From Candidatus Latescibacterota bacterium (GTDB lineage Bacteria; Latescibacterota; UBA2968; UBA8231), in NCBI GenBank assembly GCA_965219385.1, contig CBDCNM010000001.1, positions 1,290,631-1,331,135 of the forward strand: 40,505 nt of DNA, written 5' to 3'. Every line of letters starts with the position of its first letter. Position 1 is the stretch's first letter. The translations under genes and the position numbers were made by a program. Positions 28,245 through 40,505 of this stretch are shown one piece after another. A model generated the notes under the pieces. That model made no database searches and was not told where the DNA came from. It saw nothing but the letters and a program-made list of their open reading frames with translations.

Positions 28245-28274
28245 ACTGATTAAACTTCTGTTTGAAATTGTTAA

Positions 28275-29206
28275 GAGGCCGTCTGAAAACCATGTTTATT
28301 CTAAGCGAGTCGTTTGAGTAGCAAGTAAATCATGGCGATCTGAATCAACGCTTCGCTGTGGCGGGTCAACACTTCATAATCTCGGGCATGCCGACGAAAG
28401 TTCATCAACCACGCAAAGGTTCGTTCGACCACCCACCGTCGTTTGAGCGGTGTAAATCCATTTCCTTGTTTAGCGACGACTTCCAAGTCGATCTTATGCG
28501 TCTTTTTTAAGTCGGCTACCCACCCTTTGAGATCGGCTCCCGCAGAGCCGCCATTGACCCACAGCTTACGTAGCCTAGGTAGGCCGGGCGCAACATAGCG
28601 GGTCAACACCCGCTTCAAGCCGTCCCGATCGCCCACATCGGCGGCGGTGACTTCCACCGGCCGGATCCATCCCAAGGTATCTACCCACAGGTGACGTTTG
28701 CGTCCTTTGATCTTTTTGCCGGCGTCATAACCGATTGTTTCTCCTTGGGTTGCCGTCTTGATGGTCTGGCTATCGACCCCGCCGGCCGACGGGGTCAATA
28801 GCCGACCCTGCCGGCGGCGTTCCCGCTGGGTGAGTCGATCCAATATCGGCGGCCAGACCCCTTGTAGGCTCCAGCGGCGAAAGTAGTCATACACCGTTTT
28901 CCACGGCCCCAAACTCGCGGGTAACAAAGCCCAAGGACAGCCGGTCTTGGTCAGATACAAAAGACCATTGATGATCTGGCGTGGATCCCGCCGCGGGCGG
29001 CCCGGCCCGCCAGGAGGCCACGTCGAGGCGGGTAGTAACGGCTTGATTAGACGCCATTGCGCATCGGTTAGATCGGTGGCATATTCGTCGGCAGGCGTAC
29101 TCATCATAGGGGCCTTTCTATTCAGATTTTGTGGTGAAACCTGAATATGGCCCGATGAGTACGCCGATTCAAATACGGGCTACATCAAGAGTTTTCAGAC
29201 GGCCTC
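28275..29206 (-). mobile_element. IS5-family (IS1031-like) element, isoform A, 932 bp
   Basis: Perfect 16-bp TIR GAGGCCGTCTGAAAAC; TAA duplicated at 28272-28274 and 29207-29209. Confidence 0.95.
28301..29107 (-). CDS. IS5-family transposase
   Basis: YATDLTDAQW, VDSQT, GYDAGKKIKGRKRH, RWVVERTFAW. The third acidic motif reads WVNGG here versus WVDGG in isoform B, so this copy may be inactive. Confidence 0.93.
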   Translation of the reverse strand: MMSTPADEYATDLTDAQWRLIKPLLPASTWPPGGPGRPRRDPRQIINGLLYLTKTGCPWALLPASLGPWKTVYDYFRRWSLQGVWPPILDRLTQRERRRQGRLLTPSAGGVDSQTIKTATQGETIGYDAGKKIKGRKRHLWVDTLGWIRPVEVTAADVGDRDGLKRVLTRYVAPGLPRLRKLWVNGGSAGADLKGWVADLKKTHKIDLEVVAKQGNGFTPLKRRWVVERTFAWLMNFRRHARDYEVLTRHSEALIQIAMIYLLLKRLA

Positions 29207-29215
29207 TAAAGGCGC

Positions 29216-30634: not shown

Positions 30635-32476
30635 ATGCTTAATACATGCAGGTTATTTTGCTTTATCGGGCTTCTGGCCGGCCATTCACTGGCTACTCAA
30701 GCCCCATCCCTCGATCAAGAGTTCAATGATATACTCTGGAATACCGCTCGCCACATCGACTATTACTACATCGAGAAGGTTTCGCCCGACACTCTGTTCC
30801 AGGCTGGTGCCAGAGGACTCTTCCGCGCCCTCGATCCGGATTCTGATTACACCTTGTCCTCCGGGGATACAGGTCTGACCCAACATTTCACGACTCTCCT
30901 GCAAATCGCCCGGACCATCGACGCCAACGCACTCTACCCGGTCGGAGCGGATACCCTGATTCGCTTCGGCCTCGCCGGCATGCTGGAAACCCTCGATCCC
31001 TACACTGTCTTCATGGAAAAACGCTACCTCGACTCCTTTAATATCCACACCAAGGGCCACTACGGGGGCCTGGGCTTCAAAATCCAAACCGTTTACCCCG
31101 ACAGCGCCATAGCTGTATGGTCGCTGTTGCACTCCGACACCCCGGCGGCCCGGGCGGGCGTCAAATCAGGCGACCTCATCATCGCCATCGACGACAGCAG
31201 CACCAAGTACATGTCCGTTGGCGATGCCGCCGACCTGATGCGCGGTGAACCCGGTACCTCTGTGACTTTGACCCTGGAACGGGCAGGCGCATCCCAGCCT
31301 ATTAAAAAAACCATCACCCGCGAGCGGGTGCAGATGAACAGCGTGGCCTACCACACCCTGTTTCCCGACTCTACCGGCTATATCAAACTGACTGGCTTTC
31401 AATACAAAAAGAGCAGCCAGGAGGTGCGGCAGGCGCTCACAGGCCTCCTGAGCCGGGAGGTGAAGCGATTGATCTTTGATCTGCGCGGCAACAGCGGTGG
31501 CTACCTCCAGGAAGCCGTAGAGATCGTCGATTTGTTCCTCCCCAAAGACAGACTCGTGGTCTTTACCGCCGGACGCGCCTACCCAGACACGGTCTGGCAC
31601 ATTACCAAAGAAGACGCCCTGATAGGGGATACCCCCCTCGTCGTCCTGGTAGACCATGAGTCGGCCAGCGCCTCGGAAATTGTCGCCGGCGCCGTTCAAG
31701 ATTGGGACCGGGGGCTGGTACTCGGCATGCCCACGGTGGGCAAGGGGTCGGTGCAACAGCCCTTCCGCATTGGCGACAAAGCCGAACTGAAACTGACCAT
31801 AGCAGCCTATTTCACTCCCAGTGGCCGCTCCATTGACAAGCGCATGCGCAAAGACTCCACCCTCGTGGACAGTCCCGATAAGCCCTATTACACCCAGACC
31901 CTGGGACGGATCGTTCACGGCGGCGGCGGCATCACCCCCGATGTACACATGGAGGGCCGCAAAGCCACGCCTCTGTACTATCAGCTCCGGGGCTGGCGCC
32001 GCAGCAAAGACGCCAGGTTCTTCCATTTTACCCGGCAGCAGCCGGTTCTGCATCCAGATCTTAAACCGGACTTTCGCGCCGACCAGAAGACCCTGCGCGC
32101 ATTTCGCAAGTTTGTCGAGGAACGGGGCTTCGAGTACATCAGCGAAGCCGAAGCTCATCTGGACGAACTGGAGAAGATAGCCCATCAGGACGAGTACAAA
32201 AAGCTTGAAAAGACGGTCAATCGCCTGAAGAAAGAAATCGACAAAGTGGAAGAACAACACTGGAAAGACAACGAGGAACTCATCCTGTGGAAACTCACCT
32301 TCGACATCCTGGAGAAAGTCCACGGCACCACCGCTGCAGAAGCCTACAACGCCACGGTTGATCCGGTGCTGGCCCGGGCCCGCGCCATCCTGGCGGATCC
32401 ACAAGCTTATGAGGAGTGGTTCAAAAAACCCAAGATCGGCCTGCAAGAGGATCAAACGGCCACCGACTCACCTTAG
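30635..32476 (+). CDS. S41A C-terminal processing peptidase (CtpA-like)
   Basis: Signal peptide, PDZ (YGGLG, TPAARAGVKSGD), DLRGNSGG, SASASEIVAG, TVGKGSVQ. Confidence 0.93.
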   Translation: MLNTCRLFCFIGLLAGHSLATQAPSLDQEFNDILWNTARHIDYYYIEKVSPDTLFQAGARGLFRALDPDSDYTLSSGDTGLTQHFTTLLQIARTIDANALYPVGADTLIRFGLAGMLETLDPYTVFMEKRYLDSFNIHTKGHYGGLGFKIQTVYPDSAIAVWSLLHSDTPAARAGVKSGDLIIAIDDSSTKYMSVGDAADLMRGEPGTSVTLTLERAGASQPIKKTITRERVQMNSVAYHTLFPDSTGYIKLTGFQYKKSSQEVRQALTGLLSREVKRLIFDLRGNSGGYLQEAVEIVDLFLPKDRLVVFTAGRAYPDTVWHITKEDALIGDTPLVVLVDHESASASEIVAGAVQDWDRGLVLGMPTVGKGSVQQPFRIGDKAELKLTIAAYFTPSGRSIDKRMRKDSTLVDSPDKPYYTQTLGRIVHGGGGITPDVHMEGRKATPLYYQLRGWRRSKDARFFHFTRQQPVLHPDLKPDFRADQKTLRAFRKFVEERGFEYISEAEAHLDELEKIAHQDEYKKLEKTVNRLKKEIDKVEEQHWKDNEELILWKLTFDILEKVHGTTAAEAYNATVDPVLARARAILADPQAYEEWFKKPKIGLQEDQTATDSP

Positions 32477-33923
32477 CTCGACTTTATCCATTTATGTAGC
32501 GTACGAGACGGTGTGTATCAAGCGGTTGAGTAGGCTTCGAGGGATTTTTATCAGGTCGTGTTGGTTGGGCAGGTTGGAAAAAGCCTGCCAGAGCCGTTGT
32601 CGGACCCAGGCCACGGCATCGGAAAAGGTGGGTTTTCGTTTGCCATACCAGGCCGTGGCATGGCAGGGGGAGGCGCTTTTGGGGGCCAGCCGATTGGCGA
32701 TGAGGGCGACCAGACTAAACAAGGCCAAGATGACCGGCGTGGTCCGGGCAATGGCCCGCTCATTCCATTGGCGTTGGGTTTCCATGCCCAGATGGGCGCG
32801 GGCTTCCTCAAAGGTAGTTTCTACCGACCAGCGTTGGAGAAAATAGGTCAGCATTTGCCGAGGGGACAGACGCACATCGGTCGAGAGCAAGGCTTGGGGC
32901 GCGAAGCGGCCGGCCGGGTCTCGGATCAGCAGCCAGCGGAGGGGCACGGCGGGCAAGCCAGTGTGATACCACAGCGCCGTTTGGCTGTAGGTTTCCACTG
33001 TATAGGGGCCGGCGGCATACCACCGGTCCAGGGTGAGGGGGTGCCAAGGGGTAGTCGGATCGTTCAGGTGCTGCTGGAGGGTGGGCTGCCGGGCGCCTTT
33101 GCCGCGGGGGCGTCCCCGCGTGTGCGGCGTGCGGGTTGGTGGTGGGTCATACAGGGCCGCATCCAACCGCAAGCGGGTAATCAGCCCCACGTGGGGCCGA
33201 ACCGCGTCGAGAAAGGCCAAGGCGGAGAAGGTGCTATCGGCGACCACGACCAGCCGGCGGGTGGGCAGCCAGCGCGCTACCAGCTTGAGCATAGTCTGCC
33301 CCCGTTGCAACAGGGTGAGGGGGGTGCGCTGGCGCTGAGTATAGTAGCGGGCCGACGGACACAGCACACTCATAAAGGGTAAGGCCCAACTTCGATCCGC
33401 CCAAGGGATAGGCGCTACCAGCATCAACGACAGCCAGCGCAAGCCGCTAGCCTTGACCAGGTGGGGCCCACTCGAGCGGACGGGATCCCGGTAGATGCCT
33501 CGGGCCCCAATCTGGGCGCCCCGGCGCCGCTCGATGGTCTCATCCAGGCCCAGGACCAGGGGCCCGTGGGGGGCAAAGGCGGCCACCAACGCCTGGAGGA
33601 GTAGCTTACTGCCGGCCAGGGGCGACCACACACAGCGGTTGAGGATCCGGTGGTAGGTTTGAAAGGTAGGCTGTTGGCTCAAGCCCAACACCTCCAACAC
33701 GGCGCTGACCGTGCGTTTACCCGGGGCTAACAGCGCCCCGACCAACAGCGTCTGAGCCTGCGGCCAAACGCGGCTCGAAAAAAGGGGGGCAAAGGGCGAC
33801 AAAATCGTTATTATATCTTTCGGCAGGGGGCTCATCGGTTTCTCCTGGGCTGTCGATGCTTGGATACCATCAACAGTACGGAGGATACCGGCCTCCTGCC
33901 ATGCGCGTTTGGATAAAATCGAG
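32477..33923 (-). mobile_element. IS701-like DDE element copy 1, 1447 bp
   Basis: TIRs CTCGACTTTATCCA / TGGATAAAATCGAG; CTTAG on both sides (32472-32476, 33924-33928). Confidence 0.92.
32492..33835 (-). CDS. IS701-like (DDE_5) transposase, 447 aa; extendable to ATG 33955
   Basis: LGLDET, VVADST, QRWSVETTFEEAR; same protein as 37041-38384. Confidence 0.9.
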   Translation of the reverse strand: MSPLPKDIITILSPFAPLFSSRVWPQAQTLLVGALLAPGKRTVSAVLEVLGLSQQPTFQTYHRILNRCVWSPLAGSKLLLQALVAAFAPHGPLVLGLDETIERRRGAQIGARGIYRDPVRSSGPHLVKASGLRWLSLMLVAPIPWADRSWALPFMSVLCPSARYYTQRQRTPLTLLQRGQTMLKLVARWLPTRRLVVVADSTFSALAFLDAVRPHVGLITRLRLDAALYDPPPTRTPHTRGRPRGKGARQPTLQQHLNDPTTPWHPLTLDRWYAAGPYTVETYSQTALWYHTGLPAVPLRWLLIRDPAGRFAPQALLSTDVRLSPRQMLTYFLQRWSVETTFEEARAHLGMETQRQWNERAIARTTPVILALFSLVALIANRLAPKSASPCHATAWYGKRKPTFSDAVAWVRQRLWQAFSNLPNQHDLIKIPRSLLNRLIHTVSYAT

Positions 33924-33927
33924 CTTA

Positions 33928-34857
33928 GAAGCCGTCTGAAAACTCTAATTTTCATTTGATTCGTTTAAGTAGCAAGTGGATCATGGCAATCTGGATCAAG
34001 GCTTCACTATGGCGGGTCAAGACCTCATAATCTCGGGCATGTCGGCGAAAATTCATCAACCACGCAAACGTGCGCTCGACGACCCACCGGCGTTTAACTA
34101 CGGTAAATCCGGAGCCTTGTTTGGCGACGACTTCCAAGTCTATTTTGTGCGTCTTTTTTTGGTTGGCCACCCACGTTCGGATGGCCTCGCCTTGGTAGCC
34201 GCCATCAACCCACAGCTTGCGTAACCGAGCCACGCCGGCGGCCTTCAAGCGGGTCAACACCTGCTTCAAACCCTCTCGATCCTCGACATCGGCGGCGGTG
34301 ACCACCACCTGTCGAAGCAAACCCGACGGGTCCACCAACAGATGCCGTTTGCGGCCTTTGATCTTTTTGCCGGCGTCATAACCGGTTGTTTTACCATGCG
34401 TTGCGGTCTTAATCGTCTGACTATCGACTACGCCAGCCGACGGCATCGCAGCCCGGCCGCTCTGGCGGCGCTCCCTCTTGGTCAGCCGATCCAACACCAG
34501 CGGCCAGACCCCTTGCAGGCTCCAGCGACGAAAGTAATCATACACCGTTTTCCACGGCCCAAAACAAGCAGGCAACAACGCCCAAGGACACCCCGTCTTG
34601 TTCAAATACAAAAGGCCGTTGACAAGCTGGCGTCGATCCCGCGGCGGCCGACCCGGACCGTGAAGCCGCCAGCGCGGCGCGGGCAGCAACGGTTCGATCC
34701 GCTGCCATTGTGCATCGGTTAGATCGGTGGCATATTGCATACGCGGTGTACTCATCATACAAGCCTTTCTGTTCAGAGTTTGTGGTGAAACCTGAATATG
34801 GCTCGATGAGTACGCCCGTTCAAATGCGGCTACATCAGAGGGTTTTCAGACGGCTTC
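33928..34857 (-). mobile_element. IS5-family element isoform B copy 1, 930 bp
   Basis: TIR GAAGCCGTCTGAAAAC at both ends; flanks TTA and TGA do not match. Confidence 0.93.
33952..34758 (-). CDS. IS5-family transposase
   Basis: 268 aa; VDSQT, WVDGGY, RWVVERTFAW. Confidence 0.94.
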   Translation of the reverse strand: MMSTPRMQYATDLTDAQWQRIEPLLPAPRWRLHGPGRPPRDRRQLVNGLLYLNKTGCPWALLPACFGPWKTVYDYFRRWSLQGVWPLVLDRLTKRERRQSGRAAMPSAGVVDSQTIKTATHGKTTGYDAGKKIKGRKRHLLVDPSGLLRQVVVTAADVEDREGLKQVLTRLKAAGVARLRKLWVDGGYQGEAIRTWVANQKKTHKIDLEVVAKQGSGFTVVKRRWVVERTFAWLMNFRRHARDYEVLTRHSEALIQIAMIHLLLKRIK

Positions 34858-34886
34858 TGAGACGGTGCATTGTTTTGCTCAGTCAT
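34858..34886 (-). pseudogene. 5' stub of a third cassette gene cut by the IS5 element
   Basis: GAGGT-N4-ATG then MTEQNNAPS, running into the IS5 TIR. Confidence 0.5.
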
Positions 34887-34954
34887 GTTTACCTCACTTG
34901 AGAAACCATATAAATTCTTTGCAATGATCAGCTGATGAGGCGGCCTTTATAGCG

Positions 34955-35035
34955 GCCCAACGTTTCAGTGCCCCCGAACCGCGTAGCGGTTGGGCGGAGG
35001 GCCGTATGCCCGAAGCCGGGGGCACGGTGTTAAGC
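34955..35035 (-). repeat. attC-like site 1 (81 bp)
   Basis: GCTTAAC-ACC-GTGCCCCCG...CGGGGGCAC-TGAAAC-GTTGGGC; the upstream gene's TAA lies inside the RYYYAAC box. Confidence 0.75.
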
Positions 35036-35488
35036 GCTGGTGCAGCTTCGTGGAGTCATTCCCGTACGATTTTTCAGCTGACTTCCCTCCTGGCATAGGT
35101 CATGGGCAATCATATTCCATTTGGAAAATTCGCACTCATCATCTTCGTTCTCCTCTCCATAATGAATAAATACTACATCCTTCAATTCTTGGTCCTCGAC
35201 GACTTTTCTTGCGCGAATTACCCCTTCACGAAGACACGCGTGATGCACCTTCCACCACCCGTTGATGTAGTAAGCTGTCCAGAGATAGTCGGATACAATT
35301 GTGACCCTTTCCCCCAAGACGGTGTTTTCCAGACCTAGAATGACTCCGTCGAGTTCGGCGACGACGCTGTTGGAGTTGATTTCTCGCCGGCCCGTACGGT
35401 ACTCCTCAATGCAAGGACGGACAATCGCGGCTGCAAACCTGCCCCCTCCACCTCCATCCGTGAAAATCCACGTCCGGCCTGGTTCCAT
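35030..35488 (-). CDS. RNase H-like protein (cassette ORF)
   Basis: WIFTDGG, NSVVAELDGVILGL, IVSDYLW, WNMIAHDLC. Alternative start at ATG 35587. Confidence 0.75.
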   Translation of the reverse strand: MEPGRTWIFTDGGGGGRFAAAIVRPCIEEYRTGRREINSNSVVAELDGVILGLENTVLGERVTIVSDYLWTAYYINGWWKVHHACLREGVIRARKVVEDQELKDVVFIHYGEENEDDECEFSKWNMIAHDLCQEGSQLKNRTGMTPRSCTSA

Positions 35489-35659
35489 TGAATTGTTGCG
35501 ACGTAATCGAATGGGCCACTTTCGTCCTTCACGCTCTGCCGTCAATGGTCTTGTTGTCTCGACTTGAAAAGGAAATTTATCACCCATTTTTTTATCAATT
35601 CCTGGACGTAGCAAGTGCCTCTCAGGAGTTTCGATCACGCACTTGCGCTTAATGAGGCG

Positions 35660-35747
35660 GCCCAACGTTTTCAAGTTGCCGAACCGGCGTAGCCGGTTGG
35701 TGAAACCCAAGGCGCGAATGCGCCGCAGCGGCAACTGGGTGTTACAC
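35660..35747 (-). repeat. attC-like site 2 (88 bp)
   Basis: GTGTAAC-ACCC-AGTTGCCG...CGGCAACT-TGAAAAC-GTTGGGC, with the same internal AACCG..CTACGC..CGGTT hairpin as site 1. Confidence 0.72.
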
Positions 35748-35806
35748 GATGGCTACTTTTTCCACCATAGATTCATCGTCCGTGTTGATCCGTTTTCTTG
35801 ACTCCG

Positions 35807-36859
35807 CTATTGTTTCAGCCCGTACTGGCAGATGGCCTGCTCCACGGACTCACACCATGCCACAAGAGAATCCACTTCGGCGTCCGTCAGCTTTCGTGTG
35901 ATCTGACATCTGAGGTCTCGACCCGCCTGCTCGAAGAGTCCCGTAGACTCGGCCTGTTCCCAGAGAGCCTGGATAACATTCTCGGGCACCGCGGTCTTCC
36001 CCATGAACCTCGCGTCACGTAACGCCGTGTAGACGGTTTGCTTATACACAGAATAGAGCGGGTATCCCCACAGGAATCCAACGTAGATTCCGTTGAGGTC
36101 GGCATTCAGGGAACACCCCCTGGTTCTCCAACGTACAGGCACGGACTTTTTCCTGGCCCATTCGAGAATGCGGGAAAAGACGGCTCTACCATTCTCGTCG
36201 CATGAAGCAAGGAATGCTTCTTCAGTGACGACAGGCAGAGAGCCAGAAGAGCTTGGTGTAAGCTTGCCGACCTCCTTGCCGATCACAGTCTCCTGGGATA
36301 GTAGACGATCGCCTCCTCCATCAGTCTGAAAAAAGGTAAATTCAACGCATGTGACTCGGACACCTTTCGAGCACAGGAACAAGGCCGTCTGTCGGATCTC
36401 AGGGGTGATGCGTTGCCCAATGAGGACGATCCGTTGATCCTTATTGAACGCCACGGCCTCAGCCGCGCCCAACTCGAAATATGCCCGGTGGTATTCGGCC
36501 AGGCTGAGTGACTCGTCGTTCAGGTAAGAACGAAGAATGACTTCGAGGCCGCCAGTGTCGAGTCGCTCGATGAAGGATGCGTACTCAAGGGACTGAGCGA
36601 TGGTATCCCGAGGGGTGCGATCTCGCTTCAATTCAATGATGACCACATTTCCTTGGTGGTCCACGCCGAGTAAGTCGATGAATCCTCCCAAGTTTGTAGA
36701 GACCTGCCGTCCGATAATCAGGATGCCACCATCTTCCAGAATTCCGTCTGGGTTGGACTCAAGCCACTTCTCGAGCACGGACTCTTCGTGATCGACTTGG
36801 TAAGGCGACTGAACATACTCGACGAACGTATTGTCAGGTTGTATCTTGAAGACTCTCAT
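35807..36859 (-). CDS. NucS/DUF91-like PD-(D/E)XK endonuclease domain protein (cassette ORF)
   Basis: ESVLEKWLESNP, IIGRQV, IDLLGVD, IIELKR, AQSLEY; C-terminal domain not recognised. Confidence 0.82.
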   Translation of the reverse strand: MRVFKIQPDNTFVEYVQSPYQVDHEESVLEKWLESNPDGILEDGGILIIGRQVSTNLGGFIDLLGVDHQGNVVIIELKRDRTPRDTIAQSLEYASFIERLDTGGLEVILRSYLNDESLSLAEYHRAYFELGAAEAVAFNKDQRIVLIGQRITPEIRQTALFLCSKGVRVTCVEFTFFQTDGGGDRLLSQETVIGKEVGKLTPSSSGSLPVVTEEAFLASCDENGRAVFSRILEWARKKSVPVRWRTRGCSLNADLNGIYVGFLWGYPLYSVYKQTVYTALRDARFMGKTAVPENVIQALWEQAESTGLFEQAGRDLRCQITRKLTDAEVDSLVAWCESVEQAICQYGLKQ

Positions 36860-36952
36860 ACCTTTTTTCTTTCAGCCTGAATGTTCAGTGGTGTGACCTC
36901 ATCCAAAGTGATTCCGAGAATAAGATGATTCAGACAATGTCAAGGTTCTTAG

Positions 36953-38399
36953 CTCGATTTTATCCAAACGCGCATGGCAGGAGGCCGGTATCCTCCGTAC
37001 TGTTGATGGTATCCAAGCATCGACAGCCCAGGAGAAACCGATGAGCCCCCTGCCGAAAGATATAATAACGATTTTGTCGCCCTTTGCCCCCCTTTTTTCG
37101 AGCCGCGTTTGGCCGCAGGCTCAGACGCTGTTGGTCGGGGCGCTGTTAGCCCCGGGTAAACGCACGGTCAGCGCCGTGTTGGAGGTGTTGGGCTTGAGCC
37201 AACAGCCTACCTTTCAAACCTACCACCGGATCCTCAACCGCTGTGTGTGGTCGCCCCTGGCCGGCAGTAAGCTACTCCTCCAGGCGTTGGTGGCCGCCTT
37301 TGCCCCCCACGGGCCCCTGGTCCTGGGCCTGGATGAGACCATCGAGCGGCGCCGGGGCGCCCAGATTGGGGCCCGAGGCATCTACCGGGATCCCGTCCGC
37401 TCGAGTGGGCCCCACCTGGTCAAGGCTAGCGGCTTGCGCTGGCTGTCGTTGATGCTGGTAGCGCCTATCCCTTGGGCGGATCGAAGTTGGGCCTTACCCT
37501 TTATGAGTGTGCTGTGTCCGTCGGCCCGCTACTATACTCAGCGCCAGCGCACCCCCCTCACCCTGTTGCAACGGGGGCAGACTATGCTCAAGCTGGTAGC
37601 GCGCTGGCTGCCCACCCGCCGGCTGGTCGTGGTCGCCGATAGCACCTTCTCCGCCTTGGCCTTTCTCGACGCGGTTCGGCCCCACGTGGGGCTGATTACC
37701 CGCTTGCGGTTGGATGCGGCCCTGTATGACCCACCACCAACCCGCACGCCGCACACGCGGGGACGCCCCCGCGGCAAAGGCGCCCGGCAGCCCACCCTCC
37801 AGCAGCACCTGAACGATCCGACTACCCCTTGGCACCCCCTCACCCTGGACCGGTGGTATGCCGCCGGCCCCTATACAGTGGAAACCTACAGCCAAACGGC
37901 GCTGTGGTATCACACTGGCTTGCCCGCCGTGCCCCTCCGCTGGCTGCTGATCCGAGACCCGGCCGGCCGCTTCGCGCCCCAAGCCTTGCTCTCGACCGAT
38001 GTGCGTCTGTCCCCTCGGCAAATGCTGACCTATTTTCTCCAACGCTGGTCGGTAGAAACTACCTTTGAGGAAGCCCGCGCCCATCTGGGCATGGAAACCC
38101 AACGCCAATGGAATGAGCGGGCCATTGCCCGGACCACGCCGGTCATCTTGGCCTTGTTTAGTCTGGTCGCCCTCATCGCCAATCGGCTGGCCCCCAAAAG
38201 CGCCTCCCCCTGCCATGCCACGGCCTGGTATGGCAAACGAAAACCCACCTTTTCCGATGCCGTGGCCTGGGTCCGACAACGGCTCTGGCAGGCTTTTTCC
38301 AACCTGCCCAACCAACACGACCTGATAAAAATCCCTCGAAGCCTACTCAACCGCTTGATACACACCGTCTCGTACGCTACATAAATGGATAAAGTCGAG
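36953..38399 (+). mobile_element. IS701-like element copy 2, 1447 bp
   Basis: Same TIRs as copy 1; flanks CTTAG (36948-36952) and CTAAG (38400-38404). Confidence 0.93.
37041..38384 (+). CDS. IS701-like transposase, 447 aa
   Basis: RBS AGGAG; DDE motifs as in copy 1. Confidence 0.92.
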   Translation: MSPLPKDIITILSPFAPLFSSRVWPQAQTLLVGALLAPGKRTVSAVLEVLGLSQQPTFQTYHRILNRCVWSPLAGSKLLLQALVAAFAPHGPLVLGLDETIERRRGAQIGARGIYRDPVRSSGPHLVKASGLRWLSLMLVAPIPWADRSWALPFMSVLCPSARYYTQRQRTPLTLLQRGQTMLKLVARWLPTRRLVVVADSTFSALAFLDAVRPHVGLITRLRLDAALYDPPPTRTPHTRGRPRGKGARQPTLQQHLNDPTTPWHPLTLDRWYAAGPYTVETYSQTALWYHTGLPAVPLRWLLIRDPAGRFAPQALLSTDVRLSPRQMLTYFLQRWSVETTFEEARAHLGMETQRQWNERAIARTTPVILALFSLVALIANRLAPKSASPCHATAWYGKRKPTFSDAVAWVRQRLWQAFSNLPNQHDLIKIPRSLLNRLIHTVSYAT

Positions 38400-38403
38400 C
38401 TAA

Positions 38404-39333
38404 GAAGCCGTCTGAAAACCCTCTGATGTAGCCGCATTTGAACGGGCGTACTCATCGAGCCATATTCAGGTTTCACCACAAACTCTGAACAGAAAGGCTT
38501 GTATGATGAGTACACCGCGTATGCAATATGCCACCGATCTAACCGATGCACAATGGCAGCGGATCGAACCGTTGCTGCCCGCGCCGCGCTGGCGGCTTCA
38601 CGGTCCGGGTCGGCCGCCGCGGGATCGACGCCAGCTTGTCAACGGCCTTTTGTATTTGAACAAGACGGGGTGTCCTTGGGCGTTGTTGCCTGCTTGTTTT
38701 GGGCCGTGGAAAACGGTGTATGATTACTTTCGTCGCTGGAGCCTGCAAGGGGTCTGGCCGCTGGTGTTGGATCGGCTGACCAAGAGGGAGCGCCGCCAGA
38801 GCGGCCGGGCTGCGATGCCGTCGGCTGGCGTAGTCGATAGTCAGACGATTAAGACCGCAACGCATGGTAAAACAACCGGTTATGACGCCGGCAAAAAGAT
38901 CAAAGGCCGCAAACGGCATCTGTTGGTGGACCCGTCGGGTTTGCTTCGACAGGTGGTGGTCACCGCCGCCGATGTCGAGGATCGAGAGGGTTTGAAGCAG
39001 GTGTTGACCCGCTTGAAGGCCGCCGGCGTGGCTCGGTTACGCAAGCTGTGGGTTGATGGCGGCTACCAAGGCGAGGCCATCCGAACGTGGGTGGCCAACC
39101 AAAAAAAGACGCACAAAATAGACTTGGAAGTCGTCGCCAAACAAGGCTCCGGATTTACCGTAGTTAAACGCCGGTGGGTCGTCGAGCGCACGTTTGCGTG
39201 GTTGATGAATTTTCGCCGACATGCCCGAGATTATGAGGTCTTGACCCGCCATAGTGAAGCCTTGATCCAGATTGCCATGATCCACTTGCTACTTAAACGA
39301 ATCAAATGAAAATTAGAGTTTTCAGACGGCTTC
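38404..39333 (+). mobile_element. IS5-family element isoform B copy 2, 930 bp
   Basis: TIR GAAGCCGTCTGAAAAC; TAA duplicated at 38401-38403 and 39334-39336. Confidence 0.95.
38503..39309 (+). CDS. IS5-family transposase
   Basis: Same protein as 33952-34758. Confidence 0.94.
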   Translation: MMSTPRMQYATDLTDAQWQRIEPLLPAPRWRLHGPGRPPRDRRQLVNGLLYLNKTGCPWALLPACFGPWKTVYDYFRRWSLQGVWPLVLDRLTKRERRQSGRAAMPSAGVVDSQTIKTATHGKTTGYDAGKKIKGRKRHLLVDPSGLLRQVVVTAADVEDREGLKQVLTRLKAAGVARLRKLWVDGGYQGEAIRTWVANQKKTHKIDLEVVAKQGSGFTVVKRRWVVERTFAWLMNFRRHARDYEVLTRHSEALIQIAMIHLLLKRIK

Positions 39334-39337
39334 TAAG

Positions 39338-40505
39338 CTCGATTTTATCCAAACGCGCATGGCAGGAGGCCGGTATCCTCCGTACTGTTGATGGTATCCA
39401 AGCATCGACAGCCCAGGAGAAACCGATGAGCCCCCTGCCGAAAGATATAATAACGATTTTGTCGCCCTTTGCCCCCCTTTTTTCGAGCCGCGTTTGGCCG
39501 CAGGCTCAGACGCTGTTGGTCGGGGCGCTGTTAGCCCCGGGTAAACGCACGGTCAGCGCCGTGTTGGAGGTGTTGGGCTTGAGCCAACAGCCTACCTTTC
39601 AAACCTACCACCGGATCCTCAACCGCTGTGTGTGGTCGCCCCTGGCCGGCAGTAAGCTACTCCTCCAGGCGTTGGTGGCCGCCTTTGCCCCCCACGGGCC
39701 CCTGGTCCTGGGCCTGGATGAGACCATCGAGCGGCGCCGGGGCGCCCAGATTGGGGCCCGAGGCATCTACCGGGATCCCGTCCGCTCGAGTGGGCCCCAC
39801 CTGGTCAAGGCTAGCGGCTTGCGCTGGCTGTCGTTGATGCTGGTAGCGCCTATCCCTTGGGCGGATCGAAGTTGGGCCTTACCCTTTATGAGTGTGCTGT
39901 GTCCGTCGGCCCGCTACTATACTCAGCGCCAGCGCACCCCCCTCACCCTGTTGCAACGGGGGGCAGACTATGCTCAAGCTGGTAGCGCGCTGGCTGCCCA
40001 CCCGCCGGCTGGTCGTGGTCGCCGATAGCACCTTCTCCGCCTTGGCCTTTCTCGACGCGGTTCGGCCCCACGTGGGGCTGATTACCCGCTTGCGGTTGGA
40101 TGCGGCCCTGTATGACCCACCACCAACCCGCACGCCGCACACGCGGGGACGCCCCCGCGGCAAAGGCGCCCGGCAGCCCACCCTCCAGCAGCACCTGAAC
40201 GATCCGACTACCCCTTGGCACCCCCTCACCCTGGACCGGTGGTATGCCGCCGGCCCCTATACAGTGGAAACCTACAGCCAAACGGCGCTGTGGTATCACA
40301 CTGGCTTGCCCGCCGTGCCCCTCCGCTGGCTGCTGATCCGAGACCCGGCCGGCCGCTTCGCGCCCCAAGCCTTGCTCTCGACCGATGTGCGTCTGTCCCC
40401 TCGGCAAATGCTGACCTATTTTCTCCAACGCTGGTCGGTAGAAACTACCTTTGAGGAAGCCCGCGCCCATCTGGGCATGGAAACCCAACGCCAATGGAAT
40501 GAGCG
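39338..40505 (+). mobile_element. IS701-like element copy 3 (runs off the window; transposase frameshifted)
   Basis: Left TIR follows CTAAG. G6 at 39958-39963 versus G5 in copies 1 and 2 gives an early stop at 40028. Confidence 0.9.

Follow-up and report, generated by a model that had tools for sequence, protein, structure and literature searches.

A stranded fragment of a gene-cassette array in a Latescibacterota genome points to integron-like sites served by a tyrosine recombinase without the IntI insertion

A 40,505-nt stretch of a Candidatus Latescibacterota genome (assembly GCA_965219385.1, contig CBDCNM010000001.1; hereafter the window) carries, between copies of insertion sequences (ISs), two genes that are each followed by a long imperfect palindrome, and we examined this piece as a possible fragment of an integron-like gene-cassette array. 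Coordinates without a contig prefix are window coordinates, C1 and C2 denote contigs of the assembly, and all cassette features lie on the minus strand. Cassette gene 1 (35807..36859, 350 aa) stops 60 nt ahead of an attC-type site of 88 nt (site B, 35660..35747), and cassette gene 2 (35030..35587, 185 aa from the ATG at 35587) runs into a second one of 81 nt (site A, 34955..35035), its TAA stop falling within the R'' box of that site. Behind site A lies the 5' end of a third cassette (34861..34935), where a GAGG ribosome-binding motif and an ATG at 34886 can be read; this cassette is truncated after ~9-10 codons by an IS end at ~34858-34862. The window piece thus comprises two cassettes in full, each closed by a foldable attC-type site, and the opening codons of a third. 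A first-pass annotation, made from the sequence alone, had described two co-oriented open reading frames (ORFs) with their palindromes, a stop codon in an R'' box and a third gene start behind site A, all of which we found on the minus strand as it gave them.

The product of cassette gene 1 contains a NucS-like nuclease domain (Pfam NucS_C, E 7.5e-6) and matches the PADLOC candidate phage-defence family PDC-S11 (PDLC04916, E 1.1e-37). Cassette gene 2 had no match to a Pfam or PADLOC family, and its Atlas language-model features (0.94 to 'Ribonuclease H' clusters) give a lead towards a possible RNase H-like protein.

As the sequence stands, site A has the boxes R'' GCTTAAC and R' GTTGGGC, and site B has GTGTAAC and GTTGGGC; relative to the consensus RYYYAAC, the R'' box of site A fits and that of site B differs at one position. 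The outer stems differ in sequence between the two sites and yet pair, in agreement with the first-pass annotation. That of site A, GTGCCCCCG(G)/(C)CGGGGGCAC, runs for 10 bp without interruption between spacers of ACC (3 nt) and TGAAAC (6 nt), and that of site B, which includes AGTTGCCG/CGGCAACT, is an uninterrupted 8 bp with spacers of 4 and 7 nt. An AACCG..CGGTT sub-hairpin is common to the sites, each of which has two inner hairpins. This shared sub-hairpin and the asymmetric spacers (3/6 and 4/7 nt) had likewise been pointed out before; we add that the asymmetry of the sites sits in these spacers, with the excess on the R' side, and that neither outer stem has bulged bases, i.e., the extrahelical bases of attC sites are lacking. 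The G|TT crossover lies at 34961/34960 in site A and at 35666/35665 in site B, 705 nt apart. A scan of the window with Rfam 15 returned tRNA only, with no attC family and no match at site A or B. Taken alone, the folding energies of sites A and B do not go beyond chance (z ~ -1.7; 8 and 17 of 200 shuffles fold as well), and therefore the case rests on the evidence from the wider family of sites.

A covariance-model search across the genome, which the first-pass annotation had proposed as a check, showed that the two sites are members of a large family. The model, built from family sites, was run on 150 of 3906 first-look candidates in the genome and found 47 sites at E<=0.01, three of which duplicate the window sites, while an nhmmer profile of 11 sites found 43 genome sites at E<0.1. 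In the window, the covariance model matched site A (85.4 bits, E 8e-21) and site B (68.8 bits, E 3e-16) and nothing else. The sites of the genome fall into about a dozen clusters, and within each cluster they share a single strand. The same model detected sites in 16 of 30 relatives, with a maximum of 77 in one genome. Of these 16, nine come from the 18 relatives of the same family, and five from the nine and two from the three relatives examined in two other families of the class.

An integron cassette begins with the bases that close its own circle, and its first bases are therefore complementary to the flank of its own AAC box. We looked for this signature in neighbouring sites <4 kb apart by comparing the 8 nt beyond the GTT of the upstream site with the R'' flank of the downstream site, and at least 6 of the 8 nt were complementary in 16 of 27 neighbouring pairs vs 73 of 1779 non-neighbour pairs. 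The window pair fails in appearance because a non-native insert sits at the crossover of site B; once the insert is skipped, the pair has 6 of 8, and its first 9 nt are identical. The crossover G of site B is immediately followed by this 13-nt insert, TTGGGCCGCCTCA (35653..35665). Past the insert, positions 35652..35645 read TTAAGCGC, 8 nt that are perfectly complementary to GCGCTTAA within the R'' box of site A; natively, the sequence reads G and then TTAAGC. At site A, a 25-nt insert directly follows the crossover G (34936..34960, the long form of TTGGGCCGC...CCTCA, with a phase ambiguous by 1 nt). In its 13-nt or 25-27-nt form, the insert occupies the crossover position in no fewer than 11 sites or attI-like sites genome-wide (further positions: C1:186152, C1:890026, C1:891501, C2:762502, C2:2195304, C2:2450605, C2:3378353 and C2:3691334). 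The boundaries of the palindromes had been given as TAAC and GTTGGGC; both motifs are present, but GTTGGGC belongs to the 13- or 25-27-nt insert at the G|TT crossover and does not mark where the cassettes natively end on the right. Overall, the family sites are gene-cassette recombination sites of an integron-like system with its crossover at G|TT. We also noticed that the long form of the insert is partly palindromic.

No attI is present in the window, and two platforms consisting of a recombinase, an attI-like region and cassettes were found outside it. On C1 (locus L010), an apparently intact recombinase gene (C1:888122-889078, plus strand) lies ahead of an attI-like region, which is in turn followed by a GNAT cassette. 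The junction ends in GTAG and continues with TTAGAGG, the complement of the GNAT cassette's own R'' box CCTCTAA (CCTCTAAC), and further downstream come a PCMT-type methyltransferase cassette with a second site and then an IS. On C2 (locus L023), a recombinase paralogue (C2:1340259-1341166) lies divergent to an array of at least 15 sites over 22 kb, and the junction ends in GCAG, followed by TTACCTG, the complement of the first cassette's R'' box CAGGTAA (CAGGTAAC). An attI adjacent to a recombinase gene, with a G|TT cassette junction, hence occurs at two loci outside the window. From our reading of the ORFs, the C2 cassettes presumably encode methyltransferases, GNAT, HAD, nitrilase and NUDIX proteins, a putative toxin-antitoxin pair (two ORFs) and others. 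In the same array, an opposite-strand ORF of 331 aa (L023 8980-9975, C2:1330980-1331975), which may be an IS110-type transposase by its look, nearly fills the gap between two main-array sites 2438 nt apart, and the R'/R'' chain is broken there (3/8 matches). As to attI-like sequences, the C1 region contains a perfect 18-nt inverted repeat with a 19-nt loop (L010 5283-5340, C1:889282-889339), and two orphan sequences resemble this region, including a promoter-like TTGAC..TATTAT stretch, but are without the inverted repeat. The orphans are on the minus strand at C2:2195.3 kb and C2:3691.3 kb, and no recombinase gene was detected in their vicinity.

Palindromes that lie just 3' of genes and fold stably, with some copies degenerate or hybrid, could also be repeats resembling repetitive extragenic palindromes or miniature inverted-repeat transposable elements, or transcript elements such as terminators and stabilisers, with no role in cassettes. 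However, no T-run follows the stems of sites A and B, all sites of a cluster keep to one strand, the R'/R'' complementarity counted above ties a site to its own cassette start, and the clusters abut recombinase genes and attI junctions. Such an origin of the palindromes is, in our judgement, scarcely credible.

The C1 recombinase has PF00589 among its precomputed Pfam domains (row P0001) and possesses a tyrosine-recombinase catalytic domain. In an 11-sequence alignment, R164, K189, H254 and R257 are invariant and H280 and Y289 nearly so; we take these six to be the catalytic R/K/H/R/H/Y of tyrosine recombinases. The closest solved structure is VchIntIA, the Vibrio integron integrase IntI4 (2A3V, E 4.8e-37), to which the recombinase aligns in two pieces, with 26 residues vs 67 in VchIntIA (~41 fewer) where the IntI-specific insertion lies. 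In line with this, the integron-integrase profile TIGR02249 gave 198.8 bits vs a cut-off of 265 and was unmatched at profile positions 174-235, and the same gap was found in five relatives. Among NCBIfam profiles, XerA (199 bits), IntI (199), XerC (188) and XerD (179) all scored under their curated cut-offs. The IntI-specific insertion (~35 residues near patch III; also called the intI_Cterm or I2 region) is thus absent, and we refer to the enzyme as insertion-less. It is related to integron integrases but does not qualify as IntI by the accepted definition; in its logic, the system is an integron. The term integrase-less, used in the first-pass annotation, holds for the window, which had no integron-integrase profile match, but not for the genome, where there are one apparently intact and one frameshifted insertion-less recombinase. 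The absence of further sites and of an IntI-like recombinase from the genome or its relatives, which that annotation had named as refuting its reading, was not borne out: sites are plentiful in both, and IntI-like recombinases adjoin the arrays. Most database homologues of the recombinase are 360-395 aa long; ~100 of these residues form an N-terminal extension marked by a conserved IPGRxW..KxWSIP motif (P0004, P0005, P0010, P0015, P0019, P0115), in which Pfam names no domain at E<=0.05 (homologues P0004 and P0019).

Insertion-less recombinases also accompany arrays elsewhere. In four of five site-rich relatives, one lies within a few kb of the array and divergent to it. Outside the lineage, 79 homologue loci were considered, 40 of which have at least 5 kb downstream, and arrays, picked by eye and hence a lower bound, stand behind insertion-less homologues (38-47% identity) in four: Ignavibacteriota (L034), Gemmatimonadaceae of the Gemmatimonadota (L037), Algibacter (L054) and Flavobacterium (L065). 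These four have short 5' spacers, 3' spacers of 5-7 nt and R'/R'' chains. The first-pass annotation had likened the sites to cassette repeats of Bacteroidota and Leptospira; arrays of the same geometry are present in Flavobacteriia. The nhmmer profile of the family had no meaningful match on the 79 loci (best E 0.057), as expected for lineage-specific sequences. A palindrome scan of these loci in its first form (1042 matches) had no discriminating power outside the lineage and was dropped, and a further locus (L051) was set aside as an array, being repeat-rich with repeats that are duplicated genes.

The distribution of these enzymes bears on whether the sites are simply the relic of an ordinary integron, i.e., normal attC sites whose canonical IntI was lost or left unassembled, with the insertion-less recombinase as a Xer-like bystander. 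The canonical R''/R' consensus and the G|TT logic are indeed present, the genome is 94% complete, and the main text of Cury et al. 2016 (PMC4889954) concluded likewise for the few cases seen. Nevertheless, no canonical IntI over the TIGR02249 cut-off was found in the genome or in any of the five site-rich relatives, three of which are single-contig assemblies. Furthermore, the insertion-less family heads the array in four of these five relatives, at two loci in the present genome and in four distant lineages, and two attI-cassette junctions lie directly beside recombinase genes. We therefore consider an ordinary relic unlikely.

How the sites might be recognised can be approached through their conservation. 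Across 30 distinct sites, in an alignment fitted to the covariance model, 90.2% of cells were paired, compared with 71.8% in shuffles and 31-57% with slid partners. Double-sided changes amounted to 96 cells vs 34.9 in shuffles, 13 of 17 pairs had changed on both sides, and none of 500 shuffles reached the observed values of pairing or of double changes. RNAalifold on a plain MAFFT alignment of 11 sites arrived at the same set of three helices and showed compensation in 9 of 17 pairs. We show that the pairing of the sites is conserved through compensatory changes, far beyond chance, and that the variable region of the family sites is a conserved pair of hairpins. A spacer survey covered 44 sites, one of which was unparsed, and 23 had an uninterrupted outer stem of at least 6 bp. 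Among these 23, the R' spacer exceeded the R'' spacer by 3 nt in 13, by 2 nt in six and by 4 nt in three, with one exception. The non-canonical attC geometry proposed earlier is thereby extended from the two window sites, whose stems have no bulges, to a 3' spacer longer by 2-4 nt in 22 of 23 sites. Predicted stability favoured the bottom strand in 24 of 36 sites, with a mean difference of 1.13 kcal/mol (p = 0.002, which is overstated because the sites are interrelated). According to the main text of Nivina et al. 2016, the bottom strand of canonical attC sites is likewise more stable, and these sites have extrahelical bases on the L'' arm that are read by IntI.

These results also speak to the possibility that the recombinase acts on double-stranded sites in the manner of Xer and dif, the palindromy merely providing paired binding sites. 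The enzyme is without the insertion that the abstract of PMC7790495 credits with the shift to recombination of folded single strands. In addition, an 11-8-11 bp palindrome from the GTTGGGCCGCC arm, found in five copies (C2:212000, C2:1451068, C2:4116386, C2:4175521 and C2:4203963) that each precede a paralogous gene on the opposite strand, resembles the classical core site at which a tyrosine recombinase acts on double-stranded DNA. In contrast, the outer and inner helices stay paired as their sequence changes (the double changes counted above), which indicates selection for folding rather than for a fixed binding sequence, and stability favours the bottom strand, as it does in canonical attC. 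Insertion-less Xer recombinases, moreover, are known to recombine phage DNA at a site folded from a single strand (abstract of PMC3442271). Recombination of the family sites as double strands appears very improbable to us.

With good confidence, we interpret window positions 34861-36945 as a stranded piece of a cassette array, i.e., a cluster of attC sites lacking integron-integrases (CALIN), whose sites belong to a lineage-wide family and whose cognate enzyme is an insertion-less, IntI-related tyrosine recombinase. The first-pass annotation had also called the piece a CALIN, and this assignment agrees with two family sites 705 nt apart, ISs on both sides and no tyrosine recombinase in the 40.5-kb window. 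In the proposed mechanism, the recombinase would bind the folded single strand of a site and cleave it at AA|C on the bottom strand, corresponding to G|TT on the top strand. Recombination between two sites would excise the cassette as a circle, which would then be re-inserted at the attI beside the recombinase gene. Since the stems have no bulged bases and the enzyme has no domain to read them, strand choice would have to depend on other features, and may rest on the R'-side spacer excess of 2-4 nt, the off-centre inner hairpins and the stabler bottom strand. In this reading, IS elements cut the window piece off from any platform, after which an 8-kb IS-cassettes-IS block was duplicated. The results show the site family with its covarying helices, junction signatures between sites and at two attI borders, arrays linked to the recombinase in several genomes, and an enzyme without the insertion. 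From this evidence, we infer that the recombinase probably acts on the family sites as folded single strands, and that the window cassettes may still be movable in trans.

Several observations weigh against this interpretation and should be considered with it. The crossover inserts in both window sites might block recombination. About 12 of 36 distinct sites have, by eye, non-pairing outer arms. These mismatched sites join the 5' arm of one stem type to the 3' arm of another (e.g., C1:483118, C2:1317340, C2:1334645, C2:4426137 and C2:4428469), which suggests decay or exchanges inside the conserved central part of the sites, and such arms are not expected if crossovers are confined to the R' box. 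The C2 recombinase paralogue is frameshifted, and both it and the C1 recombinase are without the N-terminal extension of most homologues, because of which the activity of the C1 enzyme is unproven. The 94% completeness of the genome leaves room for a canonical intI in the unassembled part, and in the main text of Cury et al. 2016, recombinases without the IntI domain near attC sites were judged not to be IntI. No site B-site A junction was found in the contigs of four public runs, a result of little weight because contigs drop rare variants. Finally, the loci from other phyla are four in number and were chosen by eye among 79, of which 40 have the downstream length given above, and a stricter palindrome scan of the homologue loci gave no separation between upstream (174) and downstream (168) matches.

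Compared with sedentary chromosomal integrons and CALINs, such as the Vibrio cholerae superintegron (Cury et al. 2016), the present system has in common single-gene, co-oriented cassettes, RYYYAAC/GTTRRRY palindromes, the G|TT crossover, lineage-specific homogeneous sites and an attI beside the recombinase gene. It further shares with them integrase-less satellite clusters, cassettes for GNAT proteins, methyltransferases, a putative toxin-antitoxin pair and defence candidates, and the stabler bottom strand. Unlike in chromosomal integrons, the recombinase is without the IntI insertion of ~35-40 residues, and unlike in canonical attC, the outer stems of the window sites are unbulged, the family has the 2-4-nt excess in the R' spacer, and the variable region holds a conserved hairpin pair. 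Integrons with an 'inverted integrase', one oriented like its cassettes, are also known, Treponema being an example. The recombinases of C1, L034, L037, L054 and L065 resemble these in being transcribed towards the array, whereas the C2 platform and four relatives are divergent, and the inverted-type integrases that Cury et al. 2016 mention carry the IntI insertion by the definition used there. With XerC/XerD and archaeal XerA, the recombinase shares its size, its domain plan, the lack of the insertion and about equal NCBIfam scores, and the abstract on Xer-driven integration of the CTX phage shows that insertion-less enzymes can use a folded single strand. Unlike Xer, its gene sits at cassette arrays with attI junctions rather than in a dif-type role, and its best solved relative is IntI4.

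In the literature consulted (supplements aside), we found no description of cassette arrays served by an insertion-less integrase. In current integron detection, a tyrosine recombinase is retained only when the IntI insertion is present (main text of Cury et al. 2016), the insertion is credited with opening the way to recombination of folded single strands (abstract of PMC7790495), and it is described as 'not fully conserved' in an integron-like subgroup (main text of Smyshlyaev 2021). Up to 77 sites per genome, attI junctions and only insertion-less recombinases at the array heads suggest that the insertion rule misses a whole branch of integrons. The chances seem to us about even that these systems represent an old and widespread second integron lineage, found in phyla of the Fibrobacteres-Chlorobi-Bacteroidetes group among others, with an integrase without the I2 insertion, sites without extrahelical bases and a strand that is read from spacer asymmetry. 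If this is true, the IntI insertion would have been added later, as a refinement of integrons that already worked without it, and many CALINs reported as integrase-less would have a cognate enzyme that current tools discard. The family also offers a natural test of strand choice without extrahelical bases, and the odd pair of palindromes in the window is explained as a stranded cassette fragment, one cassette of which encodes a candidate phage-defence nuclease.

The ISs around the cassettes are arranged as the first-pass annotation had proposed, with inverted units on both flanks. On the left, an IS copy 'A' of ~1.46 kb forms the outer arm (32472..33930, minus strand; DDE_5 transposase ORF 32492..33955, PF13546 E 3e-28) and is joined by an IS4/5-type copy 'B' of ~0.94 kb (33924..34860, minus strand; ORF 33952..34758, DDE_Tnp_1 E 2e-31 and DUF4096 E 2e-29). 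On the right, a second 'A' copy, identified by sequence and Pfam, lies inverted relative to the left one (36946..38404, plus strand), followed by a 'B' and an 'A' copy cut by the contig end (38400..40505, plus strand), which form an inverted copy of the left A-B unit; window 38403-40505 equals window 34858-32757 at 99.95% identity. The genome has ~35 near-identical copies of IS 'A' and ~20 copies of IS 'B' (97-100% identity). The whole 8-kb IS-cassettes-IS block (32471-40505) recurs at C2:3379549-3387582 with 99.97% identity and different outer flanks. A composite transposon was considered and rejected: inverted A-B units flank the cassettes, but no target-site duplication or direct repeat was seen at the outer IS ends of either block copy. 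The end of C2 is the reverse complement of the end of C1 over 5.4 kb (5366 nt, C2:4474386-4479750), and the two contigs therefore probably join at their overlapping ends.

Public sequencing data were available as assembled contigs of four runs. The three DNA runs, which come from three studies, have contigs over most of the stretch, and many of these end or diverge inside sites A and B, as expected for a repeated family. The only contig joint, present in three public runs, skips 35037-35299 and was rejected as an excision product, as it equals a truncated gene copy at C2:750671-751117; this copy is 97.7% identical to cassette gene 2, has lost 261 nt of its 3' portion and has a further family site fused to it. 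The single RNA run yielded three short, low-depth contigs over 35100-35330, and transcription is not shown by them.

A home-made scan of the genome for AAC...GTT palindromes gave 204 matches, mostly due to chance, and was dropped; among the chance matches were two arrays of regularly spaced repeats (C1:137091-137195 and C1:329545-329682) resembling clustered regularly interspaced short palindromic repeats. The genome is rich in ISs, including a family 80% related to IS 'B', and window ISs lie at 28268-29214, 32472-34860 and 36946-40505. The A-B pair recurs as a 2.39-kb unit at no fewer than eight places in the genome. Solo motifs resembling the IS 'B' terminus (AGAAGCCGT..AAAACCC), with no IS attached, occur at L010 4083-4110 and C2:~4474090, one of them directly upstream of the C1 recombinase gene, and were possibly left by IS-mediated deletions.

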